Notes under the pieces: model-generated | The model's input: the letters and a program-made list of their open reading frames with translations, nothing else | The model's database searches: none | What the model was told of the DNA's origin: nothing | In this document: positions 1,177 through 62,812 of the stretch, piece by piece | How positions within the stretch are numbered: position 1 is the stretch's first letter | Layout of the letters: every line of letters begins with the position of its first letter | IMG/VR virus record: IMGVR_UViG_3300009177_000001 | Direction: 5' to 3' (one strand) | From: an uncultured virus (IMG/VR IMGVR_UViG_3300009177_000001) | Lineage: Duplodnaviria; Heunggongvirae; Uroviricota; Caudoviricetes | DNA: 64,000 bases | Position numbers and translations under genes: made by a program

Positions 1177-1532
1177 CTCTGAACCTTTCCCAGCTCGTCC
1201 TACTCGGCATCGCCACGGCGGCGATCCACTGGCTCATGTCGCGCGCCGCGATCACCCAGCCTATCTGGTCGCGGGCTCCGAAGGCGCTCGACGCGCTCCT
1301 GCGCTGCCCGAGCTGTTCGGGCTTCTGGCTCGGGCTCGGCGTGTCGGCCGCCGGCGTTCACCCCGTGGAGGGCGTGTCGCGCTGGCTCGGGCTCGTCGGC
1401 GCCGCCGTGCTCGCGATGTTCCTCACACCGGTGTTCGAAGCGGTCATGCTCTGGGGGTTGGGGATGAGCACGGTGGAAGAGGAAGACACCCACGGTGCGA
1501 CGACAACAGGCACGGACACGCGCATCGAATAG
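1173..1532 (+). CDS. DUF1360-like membrane protein
   Basis: Hydrophobic helices around LLRCPSCSGFW; GTGA overlap with upstream stop. Confidence 0.6.
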   Translation: MTLNLSQLVLLGIATAAIHWLMSRAAITQPIWSRAPKALDALLRCPSCSGFWLGLGVSAAGVHPVEGVSRWLGLVGAAVLAMFLTPVFEAVMLWGLGMSTVEEEDTHGATTTGTDTRIE

Positions 1533-1819
1533 GTCATCGTCGGGTATTCGATGCGCTCTCCCTCCCCGTCGAGCGCCGCCACGGCCTGCAACGCGCGCAC
1601 GGCTTCGCCATCCCAGCCGCGACACCACGTCATGCCCTCGTCGTTGGTGTTCACGCGGCCTTGTCGAGCAGCGACCGCACCTGCACCACGGATGTTGTAG
1701 ACGACGCGCCGCCGCCCGTAGTGCTTGCCGACGCGCGCGGGAAACACGTTGCGGCCTCCGTGCCACACGCCGCGCACGGAGATCTCGTCGCCAGGCCGAA
1801 GGTTGTGATGCTTCGCCAT
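1358..1819 (-). CDS. GDP-TWIRG family member 1
   Basis: LRPGDEISV ... DEGMTWCRGWDGEAVRALQAVAAL; TGATG coupling at 1819; tail overlaps the convergent gene. Confidence 0.7.
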   Translation of the reverse strand: MAKHHNLRPGDEISVRGVWHGGRNVFPARVGKHYGRRRVVYNIRGAGAVAARQGRVNTNDEGMTWCRGWDGEAVRALQAVAALDGEGERIEYPTMTYSMRVSVPVVVAPWVSSSSTVLIPNPQSMTASNTGVRNIASTAAPTSPSQRDTPSTG

Positions 1820-2100
1820 CAGAAGCCGCCAGGTCCCCACGTGTCAGTCTCGATGACGAGCGGCATGTCTTCTCGCATGAGGGTGTCGGCGGCACGCAAC
1901 GCACGCGCAGCTTCGGTGCCCCACCCGCGCGCCCACGTTCTGCCTTCGTCAGCGTGCAAGAAAGCCCAATTCTCCCCAAGCGCATCTGCATTGAACGCCG
2001 CGGTTACGGTGAAAGCAAAACGAACTACGGCTTCAACAACACACGTGCCTCGGGTCAGTGGCTCCGTAACAACGATCGTGACGTGATCGCCGACCTTCAC
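1819..2100 (-). CDS. GDP-TWIRG family member 2
   Basis: VKVGDHVTIV ... DEGRTWARGWGTEAARALRAA; GTG at 2100. Confidence 0.75.
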   Translation of the reverse strand: MKVGDHVTIVVTEPLTRGTCVVEAVVRFAFTVTAAFNADALGENWAFLHADEGRTWARGWGTEAARALRAADTLMREDMPLVIETDTWGPGGF

Positions 2101-2313
2101 GCCGTGCGCTCCAATATCACAGCTGCTTCCAGGGCACGTGCCGCTTTCGCTGTTCCATCCGCGCGCCAATGTTCTGCCTTCGTCGCTCACGCTGTATGTG
2201 AACGGGCTGGTGTGGAAGACCGGTGCCTTGATGTGGTCGATACAACGGTAAAGAACATGCGCGATGCGGTCAGAATCGCGCACAACACATGCCACGTGAT
2301 CGCCCACATTCAA
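2097..2313 (-). pseudogene. GDP-TWIRG family member 3, carrying a +1 frameshift that fuses it to member 2
   Basis: NVGDHVA ... DEGRTLARGWNSE; removing one T of TTT 2145-2147 restores AARALEAAVILERTA-stop. Confidence 0.65.
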
Positions 2314-2322
2314 ACGCCGCGC

Positions 2323-2598
2323 TCACTCGTCGAACTCCACGCCGGCCGCGCGCAGCTCCGCCTCGACGAACGCGAGGCGATCTTTCAGCGCGGCGCGGAG
2401 TCCGAGCGCCATCGCCGCGGGCACGTCGCGCTCGGTCATGGTGATCCGGGCACGGCCGCCGTAGACGCGCTCGAACAACACGAGCTTGGCGGGCCGCTTG
2501 GCCGGATCGTACGTGCCGTCAGGCGTCATCCCGAACGCGTGCGGCTGGCAGTTCTGCCCGCACACCACGCATCCGAGACGAAGTTGGCTGGTCGGCAC
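2323..2598 (-). CDS. hypothetical protein
   Basis: 91 aa, CxxC near the N-terminus, TACTGT box just upstream of GTG. Confidence 0.55.
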   Translation of the reverse strand: MPTSQLRLGCVVCGQNCQPHAFGMTPDGTYDPAKRPAKLVLFERVYGGRARITMTERDVPAAMALGLRAALKDRLAFVEAELRAAGVEFDE

Positions 2599-2631
2599 CG
2601 TGTACAGTATGCCGCTGCCGCGCGGCGTGCG

Positions 2632-3090
2632 CTAGCAGCTGATGTTGCAGTGGAGAAACAGCACGCACGTCTGCCCAGAGGAGTGCTTCACGCACTGAGA
2701 GCAGCACTCGTTACGCGGAACCTGCTGGGGAGTCGCCGCTGGCGACGCCGCCCCGGTCGCCGGCCAAAGCCAAGCCGCCGCTCGGTCGACGCTACGGCGC
2801 TCATCGGCCGACACGGCGCGGGCCGACTGCCAACCGGAGAGCATCTGCTGAAGCGCGCAGTTGAGCGCCTGCGCGCCGTACTTGGTGGCAGCGGCCGTCA
2901 GGTGAGTACGCCATTCGGTGTCGAGCGACGCGAGCGCGGCGGTGGCGTCGCTGATCAGCTCGGCAGCAGCGGGAGCCCCGCACGTCACGGCGGTGGTGAC
3001 GACCGGAGATGCGGGCTGGTCGCCGGGCGTGCGGCAACTCTGGCAGGCGGTGAACACGAGGACGGACACGAGCAGGGCGAGTGTTTTCAT
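2632..3090 (-). CDS. putative lipoprotein
   Basis: MKTLALLVSVLVFTAC signal peptide with lipobox-like Cys. Confidence 0.6.
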   Translation of the reverse strand: MKTLALLVSVLVFTACQSCRTPGDQPASPVVTTAVTCGAPAAAELISDATAALASLDTEWRTHLTAAATKYGAQALNCALQQMLSGWQSARAVSADERRSVDRAAAWLWPATGAASPAATPQQVPRNECCSQCVKHSSGQTCVLFLHCNISC

Positions 3091-3144
3091 GGGCGGCATC
3101 CTAACGCAAGCCAGGGTGCTTCGCCCAGCTCGATCGCGAGGGCT

Positions 3145-3393
3145 CTACTTCGACTTCGTTTTCGCCTTCGTCTTTGGCTTCGACTTCTTGGCAGCAGCAG
3201 GCACCAACTTCTTGGCGGCGGGCACCAGCAGCTTCTTGACGTCGGCTGCCATCACACCGACCTGCTTCACCGCAGTTCTGAGCGCCACGGCGGGGACGCC
3301 GAACTTCTTGCACCAGTAGAGCACCTCGTGCTGCTCATGCACGTTGATGCGCTTGGCGTCCGCGGGTCCGCGCTTCGAGAGATCGTCAGGCAT
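3145..3393 (-). CDS. DUF3606-family protein with Lys-rich tail
   Basis: RGPADAKRINVHEQHEVLYWCKKFGV..L..AV..VG. Confidence 0.75.
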   Translation of the reverse strand: MPDDLSKRGPADAKRINVHEQHEVLYWCKKFGVPAVALRTAVKQVGVMAADVKKLLVPAAKKLVPAAAKKSKPKTKAKTKSK

Positions 3394-3404
3394 AAGCCGG
3401 GAGC

Positions 3405-3815
3405 TTACCGCCAGCGGACTTCGGCGGCTAGCAGCTGCTTGCACAGCGCGGCCCGCTCCGCTTGCTGCTTCTCGAATTCAACAGGCGAGACGATCAGCTC
3501 GGGACGATTCGTCGCCGTGTAGTACCGCGCCATTTTCTCGTACGCCGACTCTTTCGCGCCGGATGTGAAACACAGTGGTGCGTGGTTGAGCCGCAGGATG
3601 TGATCGTGCACCGCGAGGCGCAGCTCGTTCGTCACTGGGTCGCCCTTCGCCGCTGCGATAAGTTTCGGAAGAGGCCACAGGTGATACCCACGTAGAGGCG
3701 GATCATCGCTCTCCGTGATGTCCGTAATCGGCGTGTTGCCGAACGTGGCGCCGAAGGCGTTCGGGACTTCCGCCACGAAATCGGCGTGTTCACGCGTGGC
3801 AGGCTTGGGCATCAC
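3405..3815 (-). CDS. hypothetical protein
   Basis: 136 aa with protein-like composition in a co-directional run. Confidence 0.6.
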   Translation of the reverse strand: MMPKPATREHADFVAEVPNAFGATFGNTPITDITESDDPPLRGYHLWPLPKLIAAAKGDPVTNELRLAVHDHILRLNHAPLCFTSGAKESAYEKMARYYTATNRPELIVSPVEFEKQQAERAALCKQLLAAEVRWR

Positions 3816-3839
3816 GCGAAAGGCTACACCGCGAGCGTG

Positions 3840-4109
3840 CTAGCCGTCCAGCGCTCCCGCGCCGCTGAGCGAGTCGCGCCACCCGCAGAGCGCCTGCGCT
3901 GCTTGCATCGCGCGCAGCGGTTCGTCGTCTTGGTGTTCGCCACGGATCCACGCGATGCCCTCCGCGCGCACGGCGAGCGAGCCGTAGTCAGTGCCATTCG
4001 GCAGACCGTACGAGAACGTGTGGCCCTGCACCGTTCCCACGCGGCGGATGTGCGGGCCACCGCCGAACCACACCGTGACGAGATCACCTTCGCGCAGCGG
4101 ATCAGGCAT
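3840..4109 (-). CDS. GDP-TWIRG family member 4
   Basis: LREGDLVTV ... AEGIAWIRGEHQDDEPLRAMQAAQAL. Confidence 0.75.
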   Translation of the reverse strand: MPDPLREGDLVTVWFGGGPHIRRVGTVQGHTFSYGLPNGTDYGSLAVRAEGIAWIRGEHQDDEPLRAMQAAQALCGWRDSLSGAGALDG

Positions 4110-4116
4110 CAGGCGC

Positions 4117-4314
4117 TCACGTTCGCGAGGACGTGTTTCCCGGCACCAGTGCGAAGTACACGAACTGGTCTAACGGCAGCACGGGCGCAATCGCGATCGC
4201 AGGACAAGAGCGCCAGCGCGCACGAAGCGCCTTGGCCTCCCAATCAGCTTCGCCAAGATCAACAGCAGGATCGCGCAGCAGGACGAGCGGATCGGTGCTG
4301 CGGCCCGCGGCCAT
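4117..4314 (-). CDS. hypothetical protein
   Basis: TGATG-coupled to the XRE gene stop. Confidence 0.45.
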   Translation of the reverse strand: MAAGRSTDPLVLLRDPAVDLGEADWEAKALRARWRSCPAIAIAPVLPLDQFVYFALVPGNTSSRT

Positions 4315-4580
4315 CACGCAGCTCGTGCGACCGGACGCGCCGCCGCCACCGCGCGGGCTACGTGCTCCACTCGGAACGGCTGCGCCGCGCGGCGGGTGGC
4401 GTGCACGATCACGAGCAGGCGATCCGCCGGCGGCACCACGCGGCCGGTCTCGTAGGCGGCGAGCGTCTGCCACGGAATGTCGCAGTGTCGCGCGAAGTCC
4501 TGCAACGTCATGCCGAGCTGATCACGCACGCGCCGGATCTCGATTCCGATCGGCGGCGGACTTTTGGTCTCGGGGGCCAC
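4314..4580 (-). CDS. XRE/Cro-C1 helix-turn-helix regulator
   Basis: IRRVRDQLGMTLQDFARHCDIPWQTLAAYETGRVVP; GTG 6 nt after TTGACA-N18-CATTCT. Confidence 0.85.
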   Translation of the reverse strand: MAPETKSPPPIGIEIRRVRDQLGMTLQDFARHCDIPWQTLAAYETGRVVPPADRLLVIVHATRRAAQPFRVEHVARAVAAARPVARAA

Positions 4581-4586
4581 GTGGGG

Positions 4587-4616
4587 AGAATGAGCATTCG
4601 AAGTGGTTAGTGTCAA
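4587..4616 (-). promoter_or_regulatory. sigma70-like leaderless promoter of the XRE gene
   Basis: TTGACA 4616-4611, 18-nt spacer, CATTCT 4592-4587. Confidence 0.6.
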
Positions 4617-4709
4617 GTCCTACGTGTCGGTGCAGCGGTGGCAGCGGAGCGATTCCCAGATCTTGGCCCGACCGCTGCACCCCGCGCGCGTGCGCGCACG
4701 ATGCAGCTG

Positions 4710-4785
4710 AAATCAACTATCACATACCTTCTGGATCGGACGATCGCGCGCAGATCACGTGAAGAAGGTATGCAGTAGTTGATTT
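4710..4785. repeat. 23-bp imperfect inverted repeat in a divergent intergenic region
   Basis: AAATCAACTATCACATACCTTCT (4710-4732) vs AGAAGGTATGCAGTAGTTGATTT (4763-4785), 20/23 complementary. Confidence 0.85.
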
Positions 4786-4860
4786 TTGTTGGATCATGCG
4801 CGCGCGCGAGAAGCATGATAGTTGACTAACATGATAACTATACGCTATACCGTTTTCCAC

Positions 4861-5787
4861 ATGCCAGCCTTCAAGAACCCGGTGTACCTACGTGTAGGCG
4901 CTTCGAGCGTCCCCTTCGCTCCGGGAACGCTCGAAGCGCTTCCTGACGCGCAGGAATTCCTGTTGGGGCTCATGGGCCGCGGAACCGTGTCGCTGCCCAT
5001 CGCCGCCCACTACGTGCGCCTGGCCGCGCGCCTGAAACGCCAGGGGCGCCTCAACATGCCGGCCGCGATCACGCACAACACCGAGCGCACCGCCGCCAAC
5101 GCCTACTGGCGCTGGGTGTCAGAGTCCTACACCGCCCGGCTGAGCCCCGTGCTGCGGGCGTTCGCCAAGAGCGACTTCGTGCGCACGGCCTACACGTGGA
5201 TCCGCGTGCACGCGCTCGTGCCACCGGTGATCCCGGGCAAGGACGTGAAGCGCATCCCGCGGCTGACGAGCTTCGGTCACAGCTCGCTCGATCCGGTGAC
5301 CCGCGAGGTGGTCGTGCACGAGGCCCCCCGTGTCGAGTGGGTGCCGACGACCGCCTGGACGCTACACGTGCCCCACAAGCCCGCGCCACCGCACGAGGAC
5401 CCGTGCCCCGACTGCGCCGTGATCGAGCTGGACGACAAGGGGGTGCAGCTGCAGGTGCTAGCGACGGCGTTCGAGTCGGCGTGGGGGCACCGCGATCTCT
5501 CCCGCGTGCCGGCCGACGCGCTCTTGTTCGGTGCGCCACCTCGGGAGGACGCGCAGGTGGTCGAGCGAACCGTGGCGCCGGCAGGTCGGATCGTGGCGCT
5601 GATGCCGCCGAGCCAGCTGGCGAATGACGTCGAGCGCCTCGGGGGAAGCGTGGTGCGCGAGCTGGACATGTTCGCGGCGCGGGCTCGGGAGGTGGTGCCC
5701 GATGCCGTGGTGATCTCGCGTGCGTCGGCGGGAGCGCGGCTGGAGGACGTGCTAGCCGTGGTGCGGGCGGTGTGGGGTGGCGGATGA
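4861..5787 (+). CDS. hypothetical protein
   Basis: Long ORF, first gene of the rightward run; ATG 4861 follows AT-rich promoter-like sequence. Confidence 0.7.
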   Translation: MPAFKNPVYLRVGASSVPFAPGTLEALPDAQEFLLGLMGRGTVSLPIAAHYVRLAARLKRQGRLNMPAAITHNTERTAANAYWRWVSESYTARLSPVLRAFAKSDFVRTAYTWIRVHALVPPVIPGKDVKRIPRLTSFGHSSLDPVTREVVVHEAPRVEWVPTTAWTLHVPHKPAPPHEDPCPDCAVIELDDKGVQLQVLATAFESAWGHRDLSRVPADALLFGAPPREDAQVVERTVAPAGRIVALMPPSQLANDVERLGGSVVRELDMFAARAREVVPDAVVISRASAGARLEDVLAVVRAVWGGG

Positions 5788-6004
5788 GATCCGATATTGG
5801 GCGCAGATTACCGTCGCGTACAAGGGCACGTTGAACAAAACGAACGTGACGTTGCACTACGATGGCGGCTTACAGGCGGTTACAGATTGGGGGAGCCACC
5901 AGATCCGCCCTGCGCAAGAAGGCAAGCGTTGGATCCGTGGCCACCACGGGGAGGAAACGGAACAGGGTCGTGCGTTGCTGGCCGCGTATGCGCTGACGAA
6001 ATGA
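5777..6004 (+). CDS. GDP-TWIRG family member 5
   Basis: AQITV ... QEGKRWIRGHHGEETEQGRALLAAYAL. Confidence 0.8.
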   Translation: MADEIRYWAQITVAYKGTLNKTNVTLHYDGGLQAVTDWGSHQIRPAQEGKRWIRGHHGEETEQGRALLAAYALTK

Positions 6005-6225
6005 CAGCGTTCCTTCCCGGCCGCCTGTACTTGATCACGGTCGTCGCATGGCGCGGGAAAGTGGCGCCCGTGGTTGAACGCCAACAAATAATGGTCTCGG
6101 AAGGACAAAGAGAAGAAAAGTTCTCGCCGCAGGACGAAGGCACCACATGGATTCACGGCCACTACCCGGACGACTCCGAAGAGAACCGAGCGCTCCTTGC
6201 TGCGTGGTTGCTCAAATGGAAGTGA
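6001..6225 (+). CDS. GDP-TWIRG family member 6
   Basis: LITV ... DEGTTWIHGHYPDDSEENRALLAAWLL; ATGA overlap. Confidence 0.8.
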   Translation: MTAFLPGRLYLITVVAWRGKVAPVVERQQIMVSEGQREEKFSPQDEGTTWIHGHYPDDSEENRALLAAWLLKWK

Positions 6226-6452
6226 AGGTCGGCGATCCCATAACGATGGTCGACATGCTGACTCCCGTGTGGCTAAACGTGGTGGGCTCACCGGGGGCGT
6301 CGATCACAGCCACCTACGTAGTCGCCGGACTCGCGCATACTTTCAACTTTGCTGTCGATGGCGAAGGGATAACGTGGATTCGTGGGCATCACGGGCCCGA
6401 GTCCGAAACGTTGCGAGCGCTCCAAGCCGCGTGGTTACTGAGAAACGTGTGA
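6222..6452 (+). CDS. GDP-TWIRG family member 7
   Basis: VKVGDPITMV ... GEGITWIRGHHGPESETLRALQAAWLL; GTGA overlap (alternative ATG 6216). Confidence 0.8.
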   Translation: MKVGDPITMVDMLTPVWLNVVGSPGASITATYVVAGLAHTFNFAVDGEGITWIRGHHGPESETLRALQAAWLLRNV

Positions 6453-6709
6453 ATGTCGGCGATCCCATAACGACGGTAGGCAAGATCAACGGCGTGGAGA
6501 CACCTGTGTGGCACAGGGTCACCGAGCTGGGCATGATCTCGATCAACGTTGAGGTCGCTCCATGTATGCGAGGGCGCTTTCACGCCACCGAAGGGGCAGT
6601 GCTCCGCAGCGAGGAAGACATAACGTGGATGTGTGGCCACCACGATCCTACGTCCGAAGCGTGGCGCGCGCTTCTAGCCGCATGGTTGCTCATCCGCACC
6701 GAGACTTGA
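6449..6709 (+). CDS. GDP-TWIRG family member 8
   Basis: VNVGDPITTV ... EEDITWMCGHHDPTSEAWRALLAAWLL; GTGA overlap. Confidence 0.8.
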   Translation: MNVGDPITTVGKINGVETPVWHRVTELGMISINVEVAPCMRGRFHATEGAVLRSEEDITWMCGHHDPTSEAWRALLAAWLLIRTET

Positions 6710-6744
6710 CACCTGCACACCTCGCGGTGTATCTACCGGTCCCG

Positions 6745-6978
6745 ATGGTCACTCCTGGCGTCTACAAGCACTACAAGGGCAACTTCTACCGCGTGCTCTT
6801 CGTGGCGAAGAACAGCGCCAACGACGCGGACCCGCGCGACGAGAGCGTGGTGGTGTACGTGGCCCTGTACGATGACGGACGCGTGTGCGTGCGGCCGGAG
6901 CGCGAGTTCTTGGACGTCGTGACGGACGCGCACGGAAGAGTCACGGCGCGCTTCTTTCGCCAGAACGGCGTCAAGTGA
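6745..6978 (+). CDS. DUF1653-family protein
   Basis: GVYKHYKGNFYRV ... VVYVALY ... VRPEREF. Confidence 0.85.
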   Translation: MVTPGVYKHYKGNFYRVLFVAKNSANDADPRDESVVVYVALYDDGRVCVRPEREFLDVVTDAHGRVTARFFRQNGVK

Positions 6979-8693
6979 AAAAAGTCCAGCTCGCGCCCGA
7001 TCTCTCGTTCTCCACCGAGGAGCTGGCCACACAGGTCGTAGCGGCACTCGGCATGCGCGGGTCGGGGAAGTCCAACCTGATGGGCGTCGCGGCGGAGGCG
7101 CTTCTCGACGCGAAGATCCCGTGCATCTTCATCGACTCGGTTGGGATCTGGTTTTCGCTGCGCCTTGCAGCCAACGGCAAGACGGCATCTCGGTTCGAGA
7201 TCCCGGTGCTCGGCGGCGTGCACGGTGACATCGATCTCCAGCCTACCGGCGGCGCTGTCGTTGCGCGCACGCTAGCCCGCAGTCAGGGCTCGGCCGTGCT
7301 CGACATCAGCCGGTTCTCGAAGGGCGACCGCGCGCGCTTCTGTGCAGACTTCTTCGAGACATTCATGCAGGAGAAGATGGACCACCGTGGGCCCGTCTGT
7401 CTCTTCTGTGAGGAAGCGCAGCGGGTCGCGCCGCAGAAGCTGATCAACCCGACGCCGTTCATCACGCGCATGCTCGGGGCCGTCGAGGAGATCGCGGAGA
7501 CAGGTCGGAACTACGGCATCGGCCTGTTCCTGGCGAGCCTACGCCCGCAGAAGATCAACAAGGACGTTCTGAACCTAGCCAACATCGTGGCGGCGTTTCA
7601 AGCGAACGGCGTGGCGGAACGCAAAGCCGTGGCCGATTGGGTGCAGGAGTATGGCGCCAGCGGCCGTGCAGACGTGCACGGGGAGCTGCCGGGGCTCCCG
7701 CGTGGCACCGCACTCGTGTGGGCGCCGAGCATGAAGATCTACGGTCGGTTCCGTTTCGCAAAGAAGACGACCTACGATGCTGGTGCGACTCCGACAGGAG
7801 AGATCGCACGCGTGCACGTCAAGCCGATTGATCTCGGTGTGCTCGCCGCCGAAATGGCCGCCACGATCGAGGAGGCGAAGACCAACGACCCGAAGGCGTT
7901 GAAGGCGCGCATCGCGGAGCTGGAGCGACAGGTGCGGGAGCGACCGGCGGTGGCGCCCCAGATCGTGCACACCGTACCCAAGATGCTTGCGGAGCGCATC
8001 AGCTCGACGGCCGACGCCTTGAATGAGGCGCTGGCACACATCGATACACTGGCGGAACGAACGCGAGGTGCATACAACCTGCTGGCCGCAACGAACAGGG
8101 ACGTCCAAAAGCTGAAGCAATTTCCGGCAGGCGGGTGGGCAGATGTTTTAGCTGCCGGGGTGGTGAAGTCGCTGACGAAGCCTGCCACCCCACCGCCGGT
8201 GCCACCACGCCGCGCCAATCGCACCGAACAGACCGGCGATCTCTCTCGCTGTGCTCGTGCGCTCCTCGTCGCTATCGTGCAGCTCGGCGACAAGGCCACT
8301 GACGCCCGAATCTCCGCGCTCTCAGGGTACAAGATCACCAGCAGCACGTTCGCCAACGGGCTCAGCGAGCTGCGCTCCGCGGGACTCATTGGGCAGGGGC
8401 GTGAACCGCGCGCGGCAACAACGGAAGGCGTGCGTGCCGCTGGCGACGTACCACCGGTCCCGACAGGGAAAGCGCTGCTGGCCTTCTGGCAACCGAAGCT
8501 GTCGGCGTGCGCGTACACGATGCTGGCCGTGCTGTTTGAAGACGAAACCGTGACGCGCGAGTATCTCTCTGAACGAACGGGCTACCGAAGCACCAGCAGC
8601 ACATTCGCGAACGGCATCTCGGAGCTTCGAACGCTCGAACTGATCAACGGTCCCCATGGTGGGGACTTGACGATCGCAGACGCCTTCAAGTAG
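6975..8693 (+). CDS. HerA/DUF87-like ATPase with two C-terminal winged-helix-like repeats
   Basis: Walker A GMRGSGKS, Walker B LFCEEAQ, GRNYGIG..ASLRP, coiled coil, two SSTFANGxSELR repeats. Confidence 0.85.
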   Translation: MKKVQLAPDLSFSTEELATQVVAALGMRGSGKSNLMGVAAEALLDAKIPCIFIDSVGIWFSLRLAANGKTASRFEIPVLGGVHGDIDLQPTGGAVVARTLARSQGSAVLDISRFSKGDRARFCADFFETFMQEKMDHRGPVCLFCEEAQRVAPQKLINPTPFITRMLGAVEEIAETGRNYGIGLFLASLRPQKINKDVLNLANIVAAFQANGVAERKAVADWVQEYGASGRADVHGELPGLPRGTALVWAPSMKIYGRFRFAKKTTYDAGATPTGEIARVHVKPIDLGVLAAEMAATIEEAKTNDPKALKARIAELERQVRERPAVAPQIVHTVPKMLAERISSTADALNEALAHIDTLAERTRGAYNLLAATNRDVQKLKQFPAGGWADVLAAGVVKSLTKPATPPPVPPRRANRTEQTGDLSRCARALLVAIVQLGDKATDARISALSGYKITSSTFANGLSELRSAGLIGQGREPRAATTEGVRAAGDVPPVPTGKALLAFWQPKLSACAYTMLAVLFEDETVTREYLSERTGYRSTSSTFANGISELRTLELINGPHGGDLTIADAFK

Positions 8694-8704
8694 AGGAGAC
8701 TGAA

Positions 8705-9028
8705 ATGGATACGATCGAGTCAGTAACGCGGGAATTCGCGCAGCGCTTGCAGGTAGTGTTTCACCAGCAGGTGATCGCTGCGCTTCCCGGTGATGTGCTG
8801 AAGAACGGCAGCGCCAAAACATCGACCAAGGCGGTGAAGCCGTCGAAGGAGCCGGCGCCGATCGCCCGCAAGAAGCCCCGCAAGAAGCCGCCGATCCAGC
8901 TCTGCCCGGTTCCGAAGTGCACGGGCCGAGCGGCGCCGGTCTTCAGGATGGTGTGCGCAAAGCACAAGGACACGCCGAAGAAGCTGATCGCTCAGTACCG
9001 GGCGGCGCGGAAGGCGAAGAAGAAGTAG
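8705..9028 (+). CDS. basic protein with a putative C3H zinc finger
   Basis: GAGGAG RBS; Lys-rich; CPVPKC...CAKH. Confidence 0.65.
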   Translation: MDTIESVTREFAQRLQVVFHQQVIAALPGDVLKNGSAKTSTKAVKPSKEPAPIARKKPRKKPPIQLCPVPKCTGRAAPVFRMVCAKHKDTPKKLIAQYRAARKAKKK

Positions 9029-9034
9029 CGCTCG

Positions 9035-9229: not shown

Positions 9230-9235
9230 CCTCAC

Positions 9236-9337: not shown

Positions 9338-9343
9338 GACCCC

Positions 9344-9760: not shown

Positions 9761-9773
9761 TAAACTGGCGGGC

Positions 9774-10715: not shown

Positions 10716-10723
10716 CGAAGCCG

Positions 10724-22729: not shown

Positions 22730-23024
22730 TGTGCTTGAACGCGTCCTCGGCCGCATACGCGTCGTGCACGGCTTCCTCGGCGGCTGCTGGGTATACACTG
22801 GTGCACGCGTAGCCAACCCCCGTGGTGGTTACGGTAAGATCAAGGTCAACGGGCGCGTCCACCGTGTGCACCGCTGGCTGTGGCGCGAGCTGATGGGTGA
22901 ACCTGCGCCGCCGCTGCTCGACCACCTGTGCCGCGTGCGCCCGTGTGGAAACCCGGGACATCTGCAGCCTAGCAACGTGAAAGAGAACACCAAGAACGGG
23001 CGGAGTGGCGTGGTGCGAAGATGA
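22719..23024 (+). CDS. HNH endonuclease
   Basis: CWVYTG..GYGKI..HR..LDHLCRVRPCGNPGHL..N. Confidence 0.88.
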   Translation: MTGDVLERVLGRIRVVHGFLGGCWVYTGARVANPRGGYGKIKVNGRVHRVHRWLWRELMGEPAPPLLDHLCRVRPCGNPGHLQPSNVKENTKNGRSGVVRR

Positions 23025-23365
23025 GGTGGGACTGGGTGATGGCCGCGGTGATCTCCGCTGCGTGGCTTGGACCGGTGCTGCGCGAGATCGCGTGTGAGAT
23101 AAGAAGTCGCCATCGATTGCACGTTGGGGGCCGCATCCGGTTCTTTACCGAATGTGGTTCGCTGCTGCGGGGCGTGCTGTCACCAACAGCGACGGGAATT
23201 GTTTGCGGTCCGCGTGTCGACTTTCGCGTATGGTGCGATGGAGAACAGCGTCACGTCCAGTTGTGTGATGAGGGGCTGACGTGGATTCGCGGCTGGTACA
23301 GTGGCGGCGTTCATGCAGCAGAGGCCGCACGGGCGTTACTGCAAGACGATCAGGGTTGCACATGA
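23021..23365 (+). CDS. GDP-TWIRG family member 9, with hydrophobic N-terminal extension
   Basis: LHVGGRIRF ... DEGLTWIRGW ... AARALL. Confidence 0.7.
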   Translation: MRWDWVMAAVISAAWLGPVLREIACEIRSRHRLHVGGRIRFFTECGSLLRGVLSPTATGIVCGPRVDFRVWCDGEQRHVQLCDEGLTWIRGWYSGGVHAAEAARALLQDDQGCT

Positions 23366-47914: not shown

Positions 47915-48283
47915 TCAGAGCTTTACTTTCGGCGAGTGCGGCCACGGCACGCCCGGAGGCAGCGGTGGGATCTGGGCCGGCGGCGTGGTGTACCCAACCA
48001 CTCCTGTTGCACCGACGATCCCACCGACGCCAGTCGCTCCGGTAGCTGGCGGATTTTCCGTGAGCAGCGCGATCGCTGCGCGTGCTGCACGCACCGACTC
48101 CGAGTCGAATAGGTGGTGCCCGTGTAGCCACGTGACGTCGTGGGTGGCCAGGTAAAACGTGCCGCCCATGTCTAAGACGGTGAACCCGGTTAGCATGCTC
48201 GTCTCCACCGTGGTCAGCACGACAGAGTTTTGGCGAACGATCGTAACGGGCTCGCCAGGACGCAGCGGCATCTCGGATGTCAT
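47915..48283 (-). CDS. GDP-TWIRG family member 10, with GATG/Pro-rich tail
   Basis: LRPGEPVTIV ... DVTWLHGHHLFDSESVRAARAAIAL. Confidence 0.78.
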   Translation of the reverse strand: MTSEMPLRPGEPVTIVRQNSVVLTTVETSMLTGFTVLDMGGTFYLATHDVTWLHGHHLFDSESVRAARAAIALLTENPPATGATGVGGIVGATGVVGYTTPPAQIPPLPPGVPWPHSPKVKL

Positions 48284-48465
48284 GGCTTCTTGGTCGTGAT
48301 GTTCGTGAAGAAGCGCGTGTGGTCGAGGTTGATGTTCATGCCACGCTCGCACTGTGCTGCGTGGCCCTCCGATTTGAATGGCCCCATGCGCTTCTCCACC
48401 TTGCGCGTCTTGATGTCGCGGATCTCGACGTAGAACTCTTTCGGTGCTCGCTTGCCCATCTGCAT
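48280..48465 (-). CDS. small hypothetical protein
   Basis: Coupled at both ends. Confidence 0.55.
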   Translation of the reverse strand: MQMGKRAPKEFYVEIRDIKTRKVEKRMGPFKSEGHAAQCERGMNINLDHTRFFTNITTKKP

Positions 48466-48725
48466 CAGCCCTTCTTCAATGACTTCGCCGCCAGCGCAGC
48501 GCGGATCGGTTCCGATTCGAACGTGTGGTGCCCTTTCACCCAGGTTGCGCCCTCACGATTCAAGTACAGCTCCATCTCGTGCGTCTCTTTGGCGTAGCCA
48601 GTGACGGTGAAACGCTCGCGGTAGCTGATGTCCACTTCCGTTAGCAGTAGCGCTTTGCCGCCGTTGATGAGCAGCGTGACCCGAGCACCTGGCAGCATCG
48701 GCTCCGGTTCTTCTTTGTCCGCCAT
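48465..48725 (-). CDS. GDP-TWIRG family member 11
   Basis: LPGARVTL ... REGATWVKGHHTFESEPIRAALAAKSL. Confidence 0.78.
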   Translation of the reverse strand: MADKEEPEPMLPGARVTLLINGGKALLLTEVDISYRERFTVTGYAKETHEMELYLNREGATWVKGHHTFESEPIRAALAAKSLKKG

Positions 48726-52061: not shown

Positions 52062-53726
52062 CTACACATCCTCCGTCGGCTTGAAACGCTTCACGAAGTC
52101 AATCGTGTCCGCGGTGATCGGCGGCGTGACCAGCCGCGCGAGCTTGAGCAAGTTCTTCACGTCACGTCCGGTCAGCCGCGGGTTCCTCCGAACGATCTCG
52201 ACGATCGTCTCATCCGCCAGCGCCGTCTTCGACCCGTCGGCGAGAATGCGCCAGATCGCGCATTGGTCTGCCGGCGATGGCACCGGGTAGGTCAGCCGTG
52301 CCACGCAGCGTGAGGCGATGGCGTCGTCGACATCGGCGGGCCGGTTCGTGGTGAAGAACAGCAGCGCGTCCTGGTACTCCAGCACGCGCAGGAATACGCC
52401 GACGATCGCGTTCTGCTGAAGATCGTTCCCACGCTTGTGCACGTAGACGTCGGCCTCGTCGAGCAGGAGCACGGCGTTCCAGCGTGTCGCGCGAGCGAAG
52501 ACCAGGCCCAGCTGCTCTTCCAGCGCCGTCGGGCTGGTGCCGAGCTGCGAGCACTGGACGGAGTAGAGCGCGCGCTGCGTGGCCTCGGCGTAGATCTCCG
52601 CGGTGAGCGTCTTGCCCGTACCCGGAGCGCCGCCGAGAAGCACCACGACACCACCGCTTTTGCCCTTGATGATGTCCTGGAAGGCCGCCGCTTGGTGCGT
52701 GCAGAGGAGCTGCACCAGATCTTTCATCTCGCGGGGCAGCACCAGCTTGGTGGCCATGTCGGGCTTGTAGACGTACTCGGTCAAGTGCGATACGTGGATG
52801 CGCAGCCGCAGGTGCCGGGCGAGATCGAACACAGCGAGCATGGGGTGGATCGGAATCTCCAGCTCCGGCGCCGTCTCCCCGCTATCGCCGTCGATCTCTT
52901 CCGAGTCCTCGTCTTTCTTCTTCACGCGATGGTTGGGCCAGAACCACGTGTCCGCGTGCACGTCTTTGCTGTTGTGCTCCTTGTCGTCTTCAAAGAAGAC
53001 GTCTAGAACGACACGCGAGGGCTCACCGTCGCGCTCCATTGTGAAGGTTGAGTGGCGCCAGCTGCTAGTGCCGTCGATGTCGTCGGTGGCGGTGCCGCCG
53101 GCGTAGAACTGCGCGCCGATCTTCGGCACTAGCGACGAGAAGCGTTCAACGGTCTTGAGGTGTGCTGCACGCAGCTCGGCCGTCTCGACGTACAAGTCTT
53201 TGCGCGCGAACGCTTCGCGGACCGTGAAGCCGCGAACATCGGACTCGTAGAAGCTCCAGGTGGTCTTCTTTCTGCCGCCGAACTCCTCCCACAGCAGCTC
53301 GATGAACACGTAGGCGGGGTGGTAGCTACCGTGATCGCGTCTCTCCGGTTCGTACTCGACGCGGTTCACGTAGTACGGCTGCCACACGCCCTCGGCCCTG
53401 CGGTGGTACACGTGGTGGTGCGGCAGCGGTTCGAGAAAGCGTGTCGCCAGCCCCTCGAACTGTTGTACCGTGCGCGGTTTCTGTCCGGCAGCGTCTGAGA
53501 TCGCGGCCTTCCACGTGGCGATGTCCTTGCGGAGCACGCCAACACCGTGCGCGGTGTCGTAGGCCGCGAGGAGCTTGTCGAGCGCCGTGAGCTTCTTCGG
53601 CACCAGCTCGGACAGGTCGATGCCGTCGGAATCGTTCCACTCCCACCGTTTCTCGTTGATGCCGAACGGTTCGAGCTTTGCTGCGCCGATCGTCTTGGCT
53701 AGCGTTCTGCGGATACGAAGAATCAC
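52062..53726 (-). CDS. AAA+ ATPase
   Basis: GAPGTGKTLTAE, LLLDEAD, FLRVLEY, TTNR..DDAIASR, GRDVKN. Confidence 0.92.
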   Translation of the reverse strand: MILRIRRTLAKTIGAAKLEPFGINEKRWEWNDSDGIDLSELVPKKLTALDKLLAAYDTAHGVGVLRKDIATWKAAISDAAGQKPRTVQQFEGLATRFLEPLPHHHVYHRRAEGVWQPYYVNRVEYEPERRDHGSYHPAYVFIELLWEEFGGRKKTTWSFYESDVRGFTVREAFARKDLYVETAELRAAHLKTVERFSSLVPKIGAQFYAGGTATDDIDGTSSWRHSTFTMERDGEPSRVVLDVFFEDDKEHNSKDVHADTWFWPNHRVKKKDEDSEEIDGDSGETAPELEIPIHPMLAVFDLARHLRLRIHVSHLTEYVYKPDMATKLVLPREMKDLVQLLCTHQAAAFQDIIKGKSGGVVVLLGGAPGTGKTLTAEIYAEATQRALYSVQCSQLGTSPTALEEQLGLVFARATRWNAVLLLDEADVYVHKRGNDLQQNAIVGVFLRVLEYQDALLFFTTNRPADVDDAIASRCVARLTYPVPSPADQCAIWRILADGSKTALADETIVEIVRRNPRLTGRDVKNLLKLARLVTPPITADTIDFVKRFKPTEDV

Positions 53727-56393: not shown

Positions 56394-56406
56394 TCCCCTC
56401 GCCCTC

Positions 56407-57811: not shown

Positions 57812-57815
57812 CGGC

Positions 57816-58061
57816 ATGCAGATCGGCGACCCCGTCACGCTGTACTGGTACAGCGTGTATTCGTACATGCTCGCTGTAGTCGTCAACGTTGACGTGCGGG
57901 GTGGGTTCGGCGTCCAGAATCGAAACGCCGACGCTATCAATCGCGCCACTACGTACAGGTGCGACCTTCGGCAAGAGAATGTGCACTGGATTCGCGGCCA
58001 CCACGCCGAGGATTCCGAAGCTTTCCGCGCACTGGTCGCGGCTGCGGTGCTCCGTGGCTAA
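57816..58061 (+). CDS. GDP-TWIRG family member 12
   Basis: MQIGDPVTLYW ... QENVHWIRGHHAEDSEAFRALVAAAVL. Confidence 0.82.
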   Translation: MQIGDPVTLYWYSVYSYMLAVVVNVDVRGGFGVQNRNADAINRATTYRCDLRQENVHWIRGHHAEDSEAFRALVAAAVLRG

Positions 58062-58281
58062 ACGCCCTGCCCACGCTCGCGTTTCTCGCGATCACATCTT
58101 CGTCAACCAGTTCATCTGGTATCGCGACGTCGCGAGCCACCTGCGCGAGGTGCTCGGTCCGTGCGCCGCGGACAGCGATGACCACTGCGTGGCCCGTGAC
58201 TGCCCGCAGCTGCGCGACGGTGAGCCCAAGAAGACGGGACGGCACTGCCCGCGGGATAGGAGATACGACGATGAAGGGTGA
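58054..58281 (+). CDS. hypothetical protein
   Basis: CPQLRDGEPKKTGRHCP; fills the gap between family members. Confidence 0.5.
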   Translation: MAKRPAHARVSRDHIFVNQFIWYRDVASHLREVLGPCAADSDDHCVARDCPQLRDGEPKKTGRHCPRDRRYDDEG

Positions 58282-58642
58282 GAAGCGCGAGCCACTGCGC
58301 ATCGGTGATCCGGTCACGCTGTACTGGGCGCAGCAAGAGGCGTTCACCTACACCCTGGTCGTGAATGTCAGCTCCGTCGGCTTTCAAGGAGCTACGCCAC
58401 GTGACAGCCACCGGCACTTTAACAACGAAGGTGTAACTTGGGTGCGTGGCCACCACCCGCCTGATTCTGAGCCGTGCCGAGCGATGATCTCCGCTGCGGT
58501 GCTGATCGGCGGCGACGAACCCACGCCCGACGTTCCATCCGCAGCGGCTGTCACGCGCGCCTTCTATGCCACCAGGTTCTTCGCTGTCACCGGTGGCGAG
58601 AAGCTGCGCTTCGCGACGCACAACCACGGCATCGAAATCTAA
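58271..58642 (+). CDS. GDP-TWIRG family member 13
   Basis: LRIGDPVTLYW ... NEGVTWVRGHHPPDSEPCRAMISAAVL plus tail. Confidence 0.82.
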   Translation: MKGEKREPLRIGDPVTLYWAQQEAFTYTLVVNVSSVGFQGATPRDSHRHFNNEGVTWVRGHHPPDSEPCRAMISAAVLIGGDEPTPDVPSAAAVTRAFYATRFFAVTGGEKLRFATHNHGIEI

Positions 58643-59056
58643 ATGGCCAGACGCGACCACCAAACCAAGAACGCATCCGTGATTGGGGGCCTGCGCCTCG
58701 AAGCCGACGTCGCCCAGCGCCTGTGTGAGGCTGCGCGGACACACGCGGCCGACAAGCACGGACGTGGCGACGTGGCACAGATGGCCCGCTACTACGTTCG
58801 CACGGGGCTCGGGTACACTGCCGAGGCGTCGAACACGCTGGAGGACAAGGCGCCGAAGCCCGAGCGGCTGTGTGGGCTCACGCTGGAAAAGGACGTGATG
58901 GTGCGGCTGCGCGCGAGCGGCGCGAACGTGTCTGCGGTGGCGCGCCACTTCATCCGCCGGGGGCTGGGGTTCTCCGACGCGGAATCGCGGCGGCGCGAGG
59001 AGAAATTCGCAGCGCTGGCGGAGGCACTGCGGGAGATCCGGGAGGCGCACGAGTGA
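58643..59056 (+). CDS. protein with two tandem RHH-like repeats
   Basis: GLRLEADV..VAQMARYYVRTGLGY and GLTLEKDV..VSAVARHFIRRGLGF. Confidence 0.65.
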   Translation: MARRDHQTKNASVIGGLRLEADVAQRLCEAARTHAADKHGRGDVAQMARYYVRTGLGYTAEASNTLEDKAPKPERLCGLTLEKDVMVRLRASGANVSAVARHFIRRGLGFSDAESRRREEKFAALAEALREIREAHE

Positions 59057-59319: not shown

Positions 59320-59323
59320 CACC

Positions 59324-59515
59324 GTGACCGAAACACGCGCCGCACGCCTCGCTTCGGTCGTCGCGGCCGTGAAGAACGCGATCGAGACCAAGTTCAAGCT
59401 CGTCGCGCTCCGCGCCGAAGACGCCGAGGCGTGCCACAAGACGCGCTTCGTGGTGTGCAGCTGCGGCGACCACGCCGACGCACACATCCACGTGCCGCTG
59501 AGGCCGCGCAGATGA
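59324..59515 (+). CDS. hypothetical protein
   Basis: ATGA overlap with next gene. Confidence 0.45.
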   Translation: MTETRAARLASVVAAVKNAIETKFKLVALRAEDAEACHKTRFVVCSCGDHADAHIHVPLRPRR

Positions 59516-59889
59516 CCGTCGGCGCGCTGATCACGGTCATCCGGCCGGAGGGTCCATGTCGTGCTGTAGTGCACGCAGCCAACATTCCCGAGCTGCCTGC
59601 GCATTTTCACTGGAAGCTCGACAGGCCGCCATCCGACTACTTGCCCTTCCTTGATGATGGCTATGCGGCCCCGAGCGACGAAGGACTCACGTGGATCGCC
59701 GGCTGGCCTCCGTTTGACAGCGAAGGCATGCGTGCGGCATTGGCCGCGTACGTGCTCTATTCAGATGCGTCCGGTTTTCGGCGGGTGCAGGGCGAGGTTC
59801 CTACGCTCGGAGAGGTCACAACGTACAGCGGCATCTTCCCCGTAGACAACACGAGCACAGCGGTACCACCGCAAGGGAAGCGCAGATGA
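59512..59889 (+). CDS. GDP-TWIRG family member 14
   Basis: MTVGALITV ... DEGLTWIAGWPPFDSEGMRAALAAYVL plus tail. Confidence 0.8.
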   Translation: MTVGALITVIRPEGPCRAVVHAANIPELPAHFHWKLDRPPSDYLPFLDDGYAAPSDEGLTWIAGWPPFDSEGMRAALAAYVLYSDASGFRRVQGEVPTLGEVTTYSGIFPVDNTSTAVPPQGKRR

Positions 59890-60140
59890 CCGTGAAGGTT
59901 GGCGATCCGATCACGGTGGACACGGCTGTCGGTCTGCTGCATGCGAAGGTCACGTCCGTATTCGACACCAGCTTCGGTGCAACAGGGCGCGTCGCGGACG
60001 GCGGCACAGTTTCAGTCGTGGCGTCCTTCTACTTAGAAAACAGGTTCTGGATCCACGATCACCACGCGTTCGATAGTGATCGCGTTCGGGCGATGCTGGC
60101 GGCTAGCGCGTTGAACCGCGTTGAACAGGTGCCCATGTGA
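59886..60140 (+). CDS. GDP-TWIRG family member 15
   Basis: VKVGDPITV ... ENRFWIHDHHAFDSDRVRAMLAASAL. Confidence 0.8.
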   Translation: MTVKVGDPITVDTAVGLLHAKVTSVFDTSFGATGRVADGGTVSVVASFYLENRFWIHDHHAFDSDRVRAMLAASALNRVEQVPM

Positions 60141-60457
60141 CCGTCGGTACGAAGATCACGCTGGTGCGGGACGGCCGAGCCGTGCGAGGGACGATATGCG
60201 CGCGCGCCACCATTCTCGGGTTTTTCGCGTGGCGCCGGCGGGGTGAAACCGGTCCGCGCCTGGCACGCATCGACCGCAAGGACGTGACGTGGATCTACGG
60301 CTGGCCGCGCCTGGACAGCGAACGCGTGCGCGCTCTGTGCGCTTCCGCTGCGCTCCATGGGGAAGATGCACCATGGGAGCGGCTCCCGGATCTCACGCCG
60401 CCTTTCGGTATCCGCTTCGCCGCCACTATCGACATCATGAAAGGAGAACCAAAATGA
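60137..60457 (+). CDS. GDP-TWIRG family member 16
   Basis: TVGTKITLV ... DVTWIYGWPRLDSERVRALCASAAL. Confidence 0.78.
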   Translation: MTVGTKITLVRDGRAVRGTICARATILGFFAWRRRGETGPRLARIDRKDVTWIYGWPRLDSERVRALCASAALHGEDAPWERLPDLTPPFGIRFAATIDIMKGEPK

Positions 60458-61191: not shown

Positions 61192-61261
61192 ACCGCCCGA
61201 GCAACGGTCTGTGTTGGAAAAAAGTCGCGATAAACGCCCGCAAAACGAAAGGATACGCCCG

Positions 61262-61909
61262 ATGAGACGCATTCTGCTCCTGGTACTGCTCACCGCCACA
61301 ACGTCGTTGGTTTCTCCTGTCTACGCGCACGACCACAACCACCCGATGCCCGTGGCAATCAAGGCTCGGACGCCCCAGGCCATCGAGTTCCGCAACAACA
61401 TGCGCCGCGTGTGGGAGGACCACATCGTGTGGACGCGCAACGTAATCCTGAGCTTCGCGCACGAGCTGCCCGACAAGGCAGCGGTGGTCGAGCGGCTGCT
61501 GAATAACCAGGTCGATATCAGCGCGCTGTTTCAGCCGCACTACGGCTCGGCCAACGCAGCGACGCTCGCCAGCTTGCTGAAGGATCACATCGTGATCGCC
61601 GCCGACATCCTCACCGCTGCAAAGGCCGGAGACAACGACGCCGTGGGCAAAGCCGTAGTGCGCTGGCAGGCGAACGCCGATGACATCTCCACGTTTCTGG
61701 CCAAGCTCAACCCACGAAACTGGCCGTTGGCGGAGATGAAGCCGATGATGCGTGAGCATCTGGACTTGACCCTCAAAGAAGCGGTGGCGCGCCTGCAGGG
61801 CAACTTCGCGGGCGACATCGCGGCCTACGAAGAGGTGCACGACGCCATCCTGATGATGGCGGACACGCTGTCGTTGGGAATCATCGCGCAGCGCCCGGCA
61901 GCGTTCTAA
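61262..61909 (+). CDS. secreted His-containing helical-bundle protein
   Basis: Signal peptide ending VYA; MRRVWEDHIVWTR, LLKDHI, MMREHL. Confidence 0.75.
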   Translation: MRRILLLVLLTATTSLVSPVYAHDHNHPMPVAIKARTPQAIEFRNNMRRVWEDHIVWTRNVILSFAHELPDKAAVVERLLNNQVDISALFQPHYGSANAATLASLLKDHIVIAADILTAAKAGDNDAVGKAVVRWQANADDISTFLAKLNPRNWPLAEMKPMMREHLDLTLKEAVARLQGNFAGDIAAYEEVHDAILMMADTLSLGIIAQRPAAF

Positions 61910-61926
61910 CACGGTGGTGTTCGGCG

Positions 61927-61970
61927 GCTGAACCGGTACGTAGGACGAGCGCCCCGCGTACCGGTTCAGC
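61927..61970. repeat. perfect 14-bp inverted repeat
   Basis: GCTGAACCGGTACG-N16-CGTACCGGTTCAGC. Confidence 0.8.
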
Positions 61971-61973
61971 ATC

Positions 61974-62567
61974 ATGAAAGGAATCCAGACTATGGAGCAC
62001 GACACCTTCGAGCGCGACTACTGGGGTGACTGCACCAACACCTTCGACGAGGAGCAGAAGCACTACACGTACGCGCGCTACATGGGCATTCCGCAGGTCG
62101 GGTACGCGTTCGACGCGCGTGGCAAGAGCGTGCTCGACATCGGCGGTGGCCCCGTGTCGATGCTGCTGAAGTGCAAGAACGTGCGTGGCAGCTTCGTGAT
62201 CGACCCGCTGGTCGAGAGCTACCCGCCGTGGGTCATCGATCGCTACGGTACTAAAGGCATTGCCTGTCAGGCGCGGCGTGGAGAAGACGTGCAAGAAGCC
62301 TTCCTCGAAGCGCCATTCGACGAAGCGTGGATCTACAACGTCCTCCAGCACACCGACGACCCGGCGAAGGTGGTAGCGAACGCCAAGGCCGTGGCGCCCG
62401 TGCTGCGCATCTTCGAGTGGGTGGACATACCGCCGCACGAGGGACACCCGCACATGCTCACGGCGCCGGCGCTACAGGAGTGGATCGGCGCGCGGGGGAA
62501 CGTGGTGCAGCTCAACGAGCGCGGCTGCACGGGGAAGGCGTTCTACGGGTGCTTTCGCCACCGTTGA
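61974..62567 (+). CDS. class I SAM-dependent methyltransferase
   Basis: VLDIGGGP, IDPL, FDEAWIYNVLQH; start may be ATG 61992. Confidence 0.85.
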   Translation: MKGIQTMEHDTFERDYWGDCTNTFDEEQKHYTYARYMGIPQVGYAFDARGKSVLDIGGGPVSMLLKCKNVRGSFVIDPLVESYPPWVIDRYGTKGIACQARRGEDVQEAFLEAPFDEAWIYNVLQHTDDPAKVVANAKAVAPVLRIFEWVDIPPHEGHPHMLTAPALQEWIGARGNVVQLNERGCTGKAFYGCFRHR

Positions 62568-62812
62568 AGGTTGGAGATCCAATTACGCTGTGCTGGATAG
62601 ATGCCCCCAACCACGTCGTCATGCACGCCCGCGTCGGGTGCATCCATCCGCCGGGCGGCTTGTTCCCTAACATGTTCGAGACCGAGGCGGTCAACGCTAC
62701 GTATTATATCAGGTACCTGTCAGGCGAGAATCGCACCTGGATCCGTGGCCACCATCCCCCTGACTCCGAAGCTTGCCGCGCAGTCATAGCCGCCGCTATT
62801 CTCACCACATGA
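62564..62812 (+). CDS. GDP-TWIRG family member 17
   Basis: LKVGDPITLCW ... ENRTWIRGHHPPDSEACRAVIAAAIL; TTGA and ATGA overlaps; lower GC. Confidence 0.8.
   Translation: MKVGDPITLCWIDAPNHVVMHARVGCIHPPGGLFPNMFETEAVNATYYIRYLSGENRTWIRGHHPPDSEACRAVIAAAILTT

Follow-up and report, generated by a model that had tools for sequence, protein, structure and literature searches.

In a 64,000-nucleotide stretch of DNA from an uncultured virus (IMG/VR record IMGVR_UViG_3300009177_000001), small genes with similar ends and a dissimilar middle recur between otherwise unrelated genes. What are these genes, and what would a virus gain from so many of them? The stretch, here called the window, makes up 64 kb of a contig of ~116 kb, and its syntenic relatives were found via motif scans. 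Our best explanation, to which we assign a probability of about 0.5, is that the genes form a birth-and-death library of low-expressed, nonvirion binding proteins aimed at host or defense proteins, some of them furnished with virion-peptide baits.

A six-frame motif scan combined with extraction of open reading frames (ORFs) recovered the members at the positions given in an earlier reading of the bare sequence (the original prediction). A profile built from 128 relatives and run over all six frames found 17 family domains at seven loci and no more at E < 0.05 (Table 1), and a second profile again found 17. The original prediction had counted 17 genes at these seven loci; the number of domains and loci stands, but the domains occupy 16 ORFs, ORF 1819-2313 being a single two-domain ORF whose first domain lacks an in-frame helix. 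Linked by hidden Markov models (HMMs), with a predicted shared fold and a constant C-terminal helix, the domains make up one real family, as had been proposed.

An exhaustive profile search returned 661 representatives at 50% identity (E ≤ 0.001), 150 of which were listed, and among the matches listed nearly all members were stand-alone proteins of 70 to 130 amino acids. No longer fused forms appeared among 8,000 scored candidates, in what was a weak search (fusions do exist, in P0137 and at G001 68386). The 17 window members gave one stray match in Pfam and six in PHROG, each of the latter in one member, with no consistent family; no Pfam, NCBIfam, or PADLOC family was matched by more than one of the 128 relatives, and sequence searches of the PDB gave chance matches only. 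Neither a family member nor the 262-residue capsid candidate described below had a match in 50,697 GenBank phage records, and neither the family nor its viral lineage was found described in the literature (bioRxiv supplements lay outside the search). Judged by these searches, the family is uncatalogued and a member of no catalogued family, in agreement with the original prediction, which had not recognized it as a named one. Motif matches at six genome-contig loci and at 11 of 41 metagenome loci were nonmembers by HMM or were motif-length matches without lineage genes, and for that reason no provirus or host was found.

AlphaFold2, supplied with the family alignment, modeled the member at 58271 as five strands and a helix over residues 1 to 80, with a predicted local distance difference test (pLDDT) score of 89 to 98. 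The top structural matches were all Tudor-, MBT-, PWWP-, or SH3-like (Z 5.0 to 5.8; root mean square deviation, 1.7 to 2.9 Å; 46 to 71 residues; VIA). WHSC1 PWWP1 aligned over both the barrel and the helix (71 residues, 2.9 Å, Z 5.1), and the Atlas model of a second member (57816..58061) also matched SH3-like barrels. Foldseek searches of the PDB and BFVD returned nothing at E ≤ 0.001. These middling structural scores would indicate fold, not function. The predicted structure is an SH3/Tudor-like five-stranded barrel with a 3-10 turn before strand 5, followed by a hydrophobic helix; both the SH3/KOW/Tudor-like barrel and the constant C-terminal helix that had been suspected from the sequence are thus present in the model.

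Conservation was concentrated in strand 1 (Gly-Asp-x-Ile-Thr), the Glu-Gly turn, strand 5 (Trp57, 100%), and the helix, where Ala71, Leu72, Ala74, Ala75, and Leu78 were conserved at 81 to 96%. Mean identity was 41 to 44% in the conserved C-terminal box (C-box) and 12 to 13% in the middle. The middle had been described as not aligning between members, but it proved alignable: it is 35 to 52 residues long (5th to 95th percentile, 94 proteins), with alternating hydrophobic strands and a core in strands 2 and 3 (Val30, 80%; Phe38, 70% of 128). This pattern implies that the middle represents barrel strands 2 to 4, with variable faces and loops. The notion of a variable binding surface on a constant helix therefore holds insofar as the surface varies and the scaffold is conserved, but the middle is not a free insert; it consists of barrel strands that evolve under purifying selection. 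On most of its faces the helix carries hydrophobic or small residues, beyond its apparent need for packing on its own barrel, and this may point to a second interface. A homodimer prediction for the 58271 member (128-row alignment) scored 0.40 against a mark of 0.42 and was not used as evidence.

CarD, the UvrD/PcrA Tudor domain, NusG, Spt5, Hfq, and ribosomal KOW domains were among the fold matches (Z 4.4 to 5.0; 7 to 18% identity). The members might accordingly be regulators of gene expression, KOW/Tudor-like domains that, like CarD, the UvrD C-terminal domain, or NusG, act on RNA polymerase, Rho, the ribosome, or RNA, and their genes do adjoin two divergent regulators. Such matches, however, were no better than those to eukaryotic Tudor domains, and the family had no match to Pfam KOW or LSM. 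The members are mostly neutral to acidic; their median net charge is −2, with +4 or more in 10% of 250 members, which may count against nucleic acid binding. One conserved target is also a poor fit to 8 to 20 copies with 12% identity in the middle, and we consider a regulatory role quite unlikely. For comparison with Tudor/PWWP readers of methyl-lysine or methyl-arginine, which have a conserved aromatic cage, the only conserved aromatic residues of the family are Trp57 (100%) and Phe38 (84% aromatic).

We estimated selection from 21 ortholog pairs (four nearly identical) that were chosen through synteny and best match. The pooled ratio of nonsynonymous to synonymous substitution rates (dN/dS) was 0.30 in the conserved N-terminal box (N-box), 0.41 in the middle, and 0.22 in the C-box, about twice the range of neighboring genes (0.11 to 0.29). 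The genes are therefore functional and evolve faster than their neighbors, and all three regions, the middle included, are under purifying selection.

The repertoire itself changes rapidly. At E < 0.01, the window (64 kb) carries 17 copies, and its relatives G001, G003, G004, G005, G002, and G006 carry 18, 8, 20, 18, 1, and 0; a separate count differed only in giving G003 9 copies. The family is thus expanded (8 to 20 copies) in five of seven related viruses. Relative L058, with 92 to 96% DNA identity to the window, carries a tandem pair at a site where the window has a single copy (62549..62812). The 215-bp one-gene indel between them breaks within the N-box, and the window gene is chimeric, with its first codons from one L058 copy and its body from the next. 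The same pattern of one-gene gain or loss was seen by eye between L039 and G001. Crossover within the N-box adds or removes whole genes, as shown for one locus and seen in a second, and the strain-to-strain turnover that had been anticipated is borne out both by this indel and by copy numbers of 0 to 20 among the seven genomes. No credible joint that deletes a member was found in contigs aligned to positions 1000 to 9000 of the window.

One copy is decaying. Strain X2, a near-identical strain from a separate study, is identical to the window at the fusion point of ORF 1819-2313, and protein P0017 has the same fused two-domain form, so the fusion is not a sequencing error. Between X2 and the window there are eight substitutions at 2242-2297, six of them nonsynonymous, and a 1-nt indel at 2312, which displaced the coupled start of the domain at 2137..2327. 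This copy is degenerating, not mis-sequenced.

Decay and turnover might suggest selfish or nearly neutral mini-genes that recombine via their conserved ends and gather random 3′ gene scraps. Low GC content at third codon positions (GC3), insertion at gene junctions, the one-gene indel in the N-box, the clustered, mostly nonsynonymous changes of the degenerate copy, and the near-total loss of the family from G002 would all suit this explanation. It conflicts with the purifying selection in all three regions and with the synonymous codon identity of the boxes, which is 0.42 to 0.46 and therefore leaves no DNA-level recombination site. There is also no credible reverse transcriptase (RT) motif in the seven genomes, where a motif scan (the window represented by its 64 kb) gave only two noncredible strings, and the C-terminal tails described below are enriched for virion proteins, the best case having diverged mainly at silent sites. 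We regard mini-genes of this kind as very unlikely. Two named systems were tried and rejected: an integron cassette or shufflon, on account of the same silent identity, the overlap of the genes without spacers, and the restriction of repeats to the coding boxes; and a diversity-generating retroelement, since the 102 window ORFs hold no RT and there is no near-identical repeat pair.

Members within one genome resemble each other at the C-box. Among 74 of 82 copies entered, the nearest neighbor by C-box lay in the same genome for 38, against 14.4 expected; for the middle the figure was 18 of 73. The excess was clear at the amino acid level (0 of 500 permutations); silent sites showed only a slight one (7 of 500; 67 copies). 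Cross-genome orthology was almost wholly unsupported among the 74 copies, and FastTree resolved almost nothing. The likeness within genomes would fit local duplication, gene conversion, or coevolution with a genome-specific partner. C-box codons of 105 members showed an excess over genome usage of GAA at Glu (65 of 105) and ATT at Ile (40 of 73). GATC avoidance was ruled out as the cause, the observed/expected ratio of GATC being 0.85 to 1.19.

The genes also sit in a characteristic setting. As had been noted from the sequence, most of them (13 of 17 domains) lie around two divergent control regions, at 1.4 to 6.7 kb or 57.8 to 60.5 kb; start/stop overlaps (ATGA, GTGA, TTGA, or TGATG) form most junctions; and GC is low, with a family GC3 of 0.68 to 0.72 versus 0.80 in 201 other short genes from three genomes (P = 2e-11). 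In codon adaptation they rank lowest in the genome, while candidate virion genes have a GC3 of ~0.9. They are found in accessory operons, outside the virion block. Members adjoin the helix-turn-helix (HTH) repressor-like gene (4314..4580 in the window) in the window, G001, G002, G003, and G004. In five genomes, and also on three short contigs, a tandem ribbon-helix-helix (RHH)-like gene lies next to family arrays; it is absent where the family was lost.

We looked at the related genomes for partners of the family. In a seven-marker tree rooted on G006, G002 fell among the expanded genomes (support, 95); the copies missing from it were therefore probably lost, and the HerA-like and tandem-RHH genes with them. 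Both of the latter genes are present in five of five expanded genomes and in neither of the two others, a distribution that amounts to one loss event. Two ATPases had been offered as shared partners. The AAA+ gene at 52062-53726 is window specific, with no counterpart in six related genomes, and drops out. The HerA-like gene does co-occur with expansion, but through that one loss event, and remains a candidate only.

A 262-amino-acid protein (G001 76928-77716; L010:16931-17716, minus strand) marks six records of 89 to 122 kb, at 66 to 100% identity, and has 178 homologs. Its nearest named families in the Atlas are the jelly-roll P2/P3 capsids (0.75 to 0.76, a lead only); it had no match in the PDB, and its structure predicted without an alignment had a pLDDT of 32. 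We treat it as a putative, weakly supported jelly-roll major capsid protein. In the complete relative G001, no portal or HK97 capsid was found among 69 of 157 called ORFs scanned, one PHROG labeled terminase matched the HerA-like ATPase, and transglutaminase-like, SLT, and collagen genes were present. The six records showed no evident Walker-A packaging ATPase that all of them share. The lineage is probably tailless, and it would constitute an undescribed group of large (89 to 122 kb) bacterial viruses without a recognizable portal or HK97 capsid. The tailless jelly-roll viruses (Singelaviria/Varidnaviria-like), marked by a jelly-roll capsid protein and by the lack of portal, HK97 capsid, and tail genes, are a candidate grouping for it.

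The region after the helix is where virion sequences enter the family. Tails of 12 to 130 residues extend beyond the helix in 86 of 281 distinct members. We compared these tails with conserved proteins of the lineage, represented by 89 profiles (19,098 residues, 262 of them the putative capsid protein). Six tails matched a profile at E < 0.01, where shuffles gave 0.2 per set; reversed-tail controls gave three matches below 0.01 in a smaller set, which is a caveat on this result. Four of the six were segments of the putative capsid protein: its N-terminal 40 residues (E = 4e-23), its C-terminal strand, and the same internal helix twice, in different members at different loci of G003 and G004. 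The other two matched the gene upstream of the capsid gene and an HNH gene, the latter probably by read-through. The best-case capsid-derived tail had diverged mainly at silent sites. Two further tails matched fiber genes (E = 8e-13 and 2e-6), in one case the same genome's own, and Gly-X-Y runs occurred in 12 tails versus 3.4 expected, the orthologs of window gene 47915 among them. No capsid segment was found in 158 other accessory proteins at E < 0.01. By sequence similarity, then, a minority of tails appear to carry segments of the virus's own putative capsid, capsid-neighbor, and fiber proteins, which would lend some indirect support to a decoy function. Other tails are of other kinds. The tail of 1358..1819 is a read-through antisense to gene 1152-1532, a conserved gene whose opposite strand it matches, and a recurrent helical tail on four members (P0030, P0076, L041:2535-2879, and G005 44131) presumably resembles a SHOCT-type oligomerization module.

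Capsid proteins are known immune triggers, and CapRel senses capsid. Taken at their fullest, the tails might make the family a recombination-shuffled bait library of ~100-kb tailless phages, in which the scaffold picks up peptides from the capsid and fibers of its own virus and shows them early, so as to tie up host sensors that recognize virion proteins or jam relatives; this stronger version is unlikely, if still worth considering. The same tails could instead serve competition between viruses, with members acting as superinfection exclusion or self/nonself factors whose tails poison a competitor's assembly while the helix docks on a viral partner such as the HerA-like ATPase. The capsid regions copied (N terminus, C terminus, and, twice, one internal helix), the genome-specific amino acids of the C-box, and the distribution of the HerA-like and tandem-RHH genes speak for such a role. 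Capsid proteins are, however, 83 to 86% identical between relatives, so that a capsid-segment poison would strike its carrier too; the distribution reduces to a single loss, and most members have no tail. We think competition of this kind improbable. Finally, the members might be minor virion proteins or packaged cargo, the helix being a packaging or membrane tag and the capsid and collagen pieces aiding coassembly. Tails derived from virion proteins and a helix that is hydrophobic on most faces would agree with this, but the weak codon adaptation of the family, next to a GC3 of ~0.9 in candidate virion genes, and the placement of its genes in accessory operons do not, and cargo is a very improbable explanation.

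The reading that we favor, a library of host- or defense-directed binders, would work as follows. In the predicted fold of each member, a strongly hydrophobic helix closes a barrel of five strands. The constant parts are the helix, strands 1 and 5, and the 3-10 turn, and the helix would have some role shared by all copies. The exposed faces of strands 2 to 4 and the loops differ from copy to copy and would give each its own binding. Expression would be early, low level, and nonvirion, given the weak codon adaptation of the genes and their coupling in accessory operons beside the two divergent regulators. Recombination at the conserved boxes adds, deletes, and makes chimeric copies, and the C terminus after the helix accepts add-on peptides, which in a minority of copies resemble segments of the virus's own putative capsid, capsid-neighbor, and fiber proteins. 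The likeliest role would be to bind, neutralize, or distract host proteins, especially defense sensors, with a different set in each virus.

Several observations weigh against this reading. Fold Z-scores below 8 may reflect only a shared arrangement. The dN/dS of the middle is below 1, with no signal of an arms race or of positive selection on average. Tails of at least 12 amino acids are confined to the 86 members noted above, and capsid segments occur in only four (~5% of the tails, 1.4% of the members), none in the window. Detection favors the capsid protein as the most conserved protein of the lineage, and that protein's identity as a capsid is itself weakly supported. With one copy in G002 and none in G006, the library is dispensable.

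Coordinates of the family domains and of the associated features are collected in Table 1. The inverted repeat of the first divergent control region likely represents symmetric promoters or operators.

Table 1. Family domains and associated features of the window
Feature	Position	Strand	Basis
Family member, short-loop type (W-x-R-G-W then helix), 153 aa	1358..1819	-	HMM E 1.5e-13
Family domain forming second half of ORF 1819-2313, with GTG start of its own	1819..2100	-	HMM E 5.5e-14 and junction
Degenerate family domain with out-of-frame helix, fused to next domain	2137..2327	-	HMM E 0.0018
Family member	3840..4109	-	HMM E 6.8e-17
Family member, 1st of 4-gene coupled array	5777..6004	+	HMM E 1.2e-18
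Family member, 2nd of 4-gene coupled array	6001..6225	+	HMM E 2.6e-17
Family member, 3rd of 4-gene coupled array	6222..6452	+	HMM E 1.6e-21
Family member, 4th of 4-gene coupled array	6449..6709	+	HMM E 1.7e-17
Family member, N-terminal extension, coupled behind HNH gene	23021..23365	+	HMM E 2.5e-9
Family member, Gly-X-Y (collagen-like) tail	47915..48283	-	HMM E 1.9e-17; Gly-X-Y run in near-identical P0023 and ortholog P0052
Family member	48465..48725	-	HMM E 1.1e-18
Family member	57816..58061	+	HMM E 2e-21; Atlas model SH3-like
Family member, modeled as barrel plus helix, residues 1-80	58271..58642	+	HMM and AlphaFold2 model
Family member, 1st of 3-gene coupled array	59512..59889	+	HMM E 1.7e-14
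Family member, 2nd of 3-gene coupled array	59886..60140	+	HMM E 8.2e-20
Family member, 3rd of 3-gene coupled array	60137..60457	+	HMM E 6.6e-17
Family member, chimeric	62549..62812	+	HMM E 2.4e-18; start 62549 GTG or 62564 TTG
HTH repressor-like gene, first divergent region	4314..4580	-	Pfam HTH_31/HTH_3
Inverted repeat, 46-nt arms, 80% complementary, first divergent control region	4687..4808		Repeat search
HerA-like ATPase, candidate partner only	6975..8693	+	Weak Pfam DUF87 match
Tandem RHH-like gene inside second array region	58643..59056	+	Weak Pfam CcdA match

The window also encodes PolA with a uracil-DNA glycosylase (UDG) domain, SNF2 and Dda-like helicases, Sak4, Thy1, glycosylation genes, and a collagen fiber. 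The family A DNA polymerase gene (19160-21478), with its fused N-terminal UDG-like domain, is conserved in relatives, and in the virion block of G001 a transglutaminase-like gene (85995-87482; L011:5998-7482, minus strand) is interrupted by an intein. Two helical, His-rich accessory genes (61262-61909 and 62809-63480, one with DUF2935) lie near the second array region and are common to relative L058 only. Window DNA was found in rhizosphere and soil metagenomes, with no RNA data set among the matches listed.

This large uncatalogued family, with its 661 representatives, accounts for about one-tenth of the gene count in undescribed large soil viruses, and the turnover of its repertoire has been made visible. 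If the copies are host-directed binders, they offer a ready candidate list of antidefense or host takeover proteins. Repeated capture of the same capsid segment on one scaffold, if true, would be a new route to self-mimic decoys, and the captured segments would point to capsid surfaces that hosts may sense.

How does the family compare with what is known? Closest at hand is the DUF1653 gene (PF07866; 6745-6978) directly after the 5777-6709 array, which resembles the family in its small barrel and adjoining position and was rejected as a member by profile comparison (probability, 0.1%). It is one of two small SH3-like nonmembers in the window; the other, at 17755-17970, was judged so by eye. 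The Royal-family and SH3-like barrels (Tudor, PWWP, and MBT; CarD, UvrD/PcrA, and the NusG KOW domain) share the five-stranded barrel and, in PWWP, a helix after it. The family differs from them in having no sequence match (6 to 18% identity), in its E-G-x-T-W-I-R-G-H-H box and Ala/Leu helix, and in consisting of stand-alone multicopy viral genes. Borg elements (10.1101/2024.11.05.622173) likewise have multicopy, clustered families under relaxed yet purifying selection (reported dN/dS, 0.235), but the elements are archaeal, their families consist of metalloproteases and enzymes of glycosylation, and the text describing them contains neither the word SH3 nor the word Tudor. T7 Ocr (PMC12409349) is a phage decoy protein that mimics a sensed structure. 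The concept of mimicry is the same; here the mimicry, if real, would be of the virus's own virion peptides, displayed on a shared scaffold.

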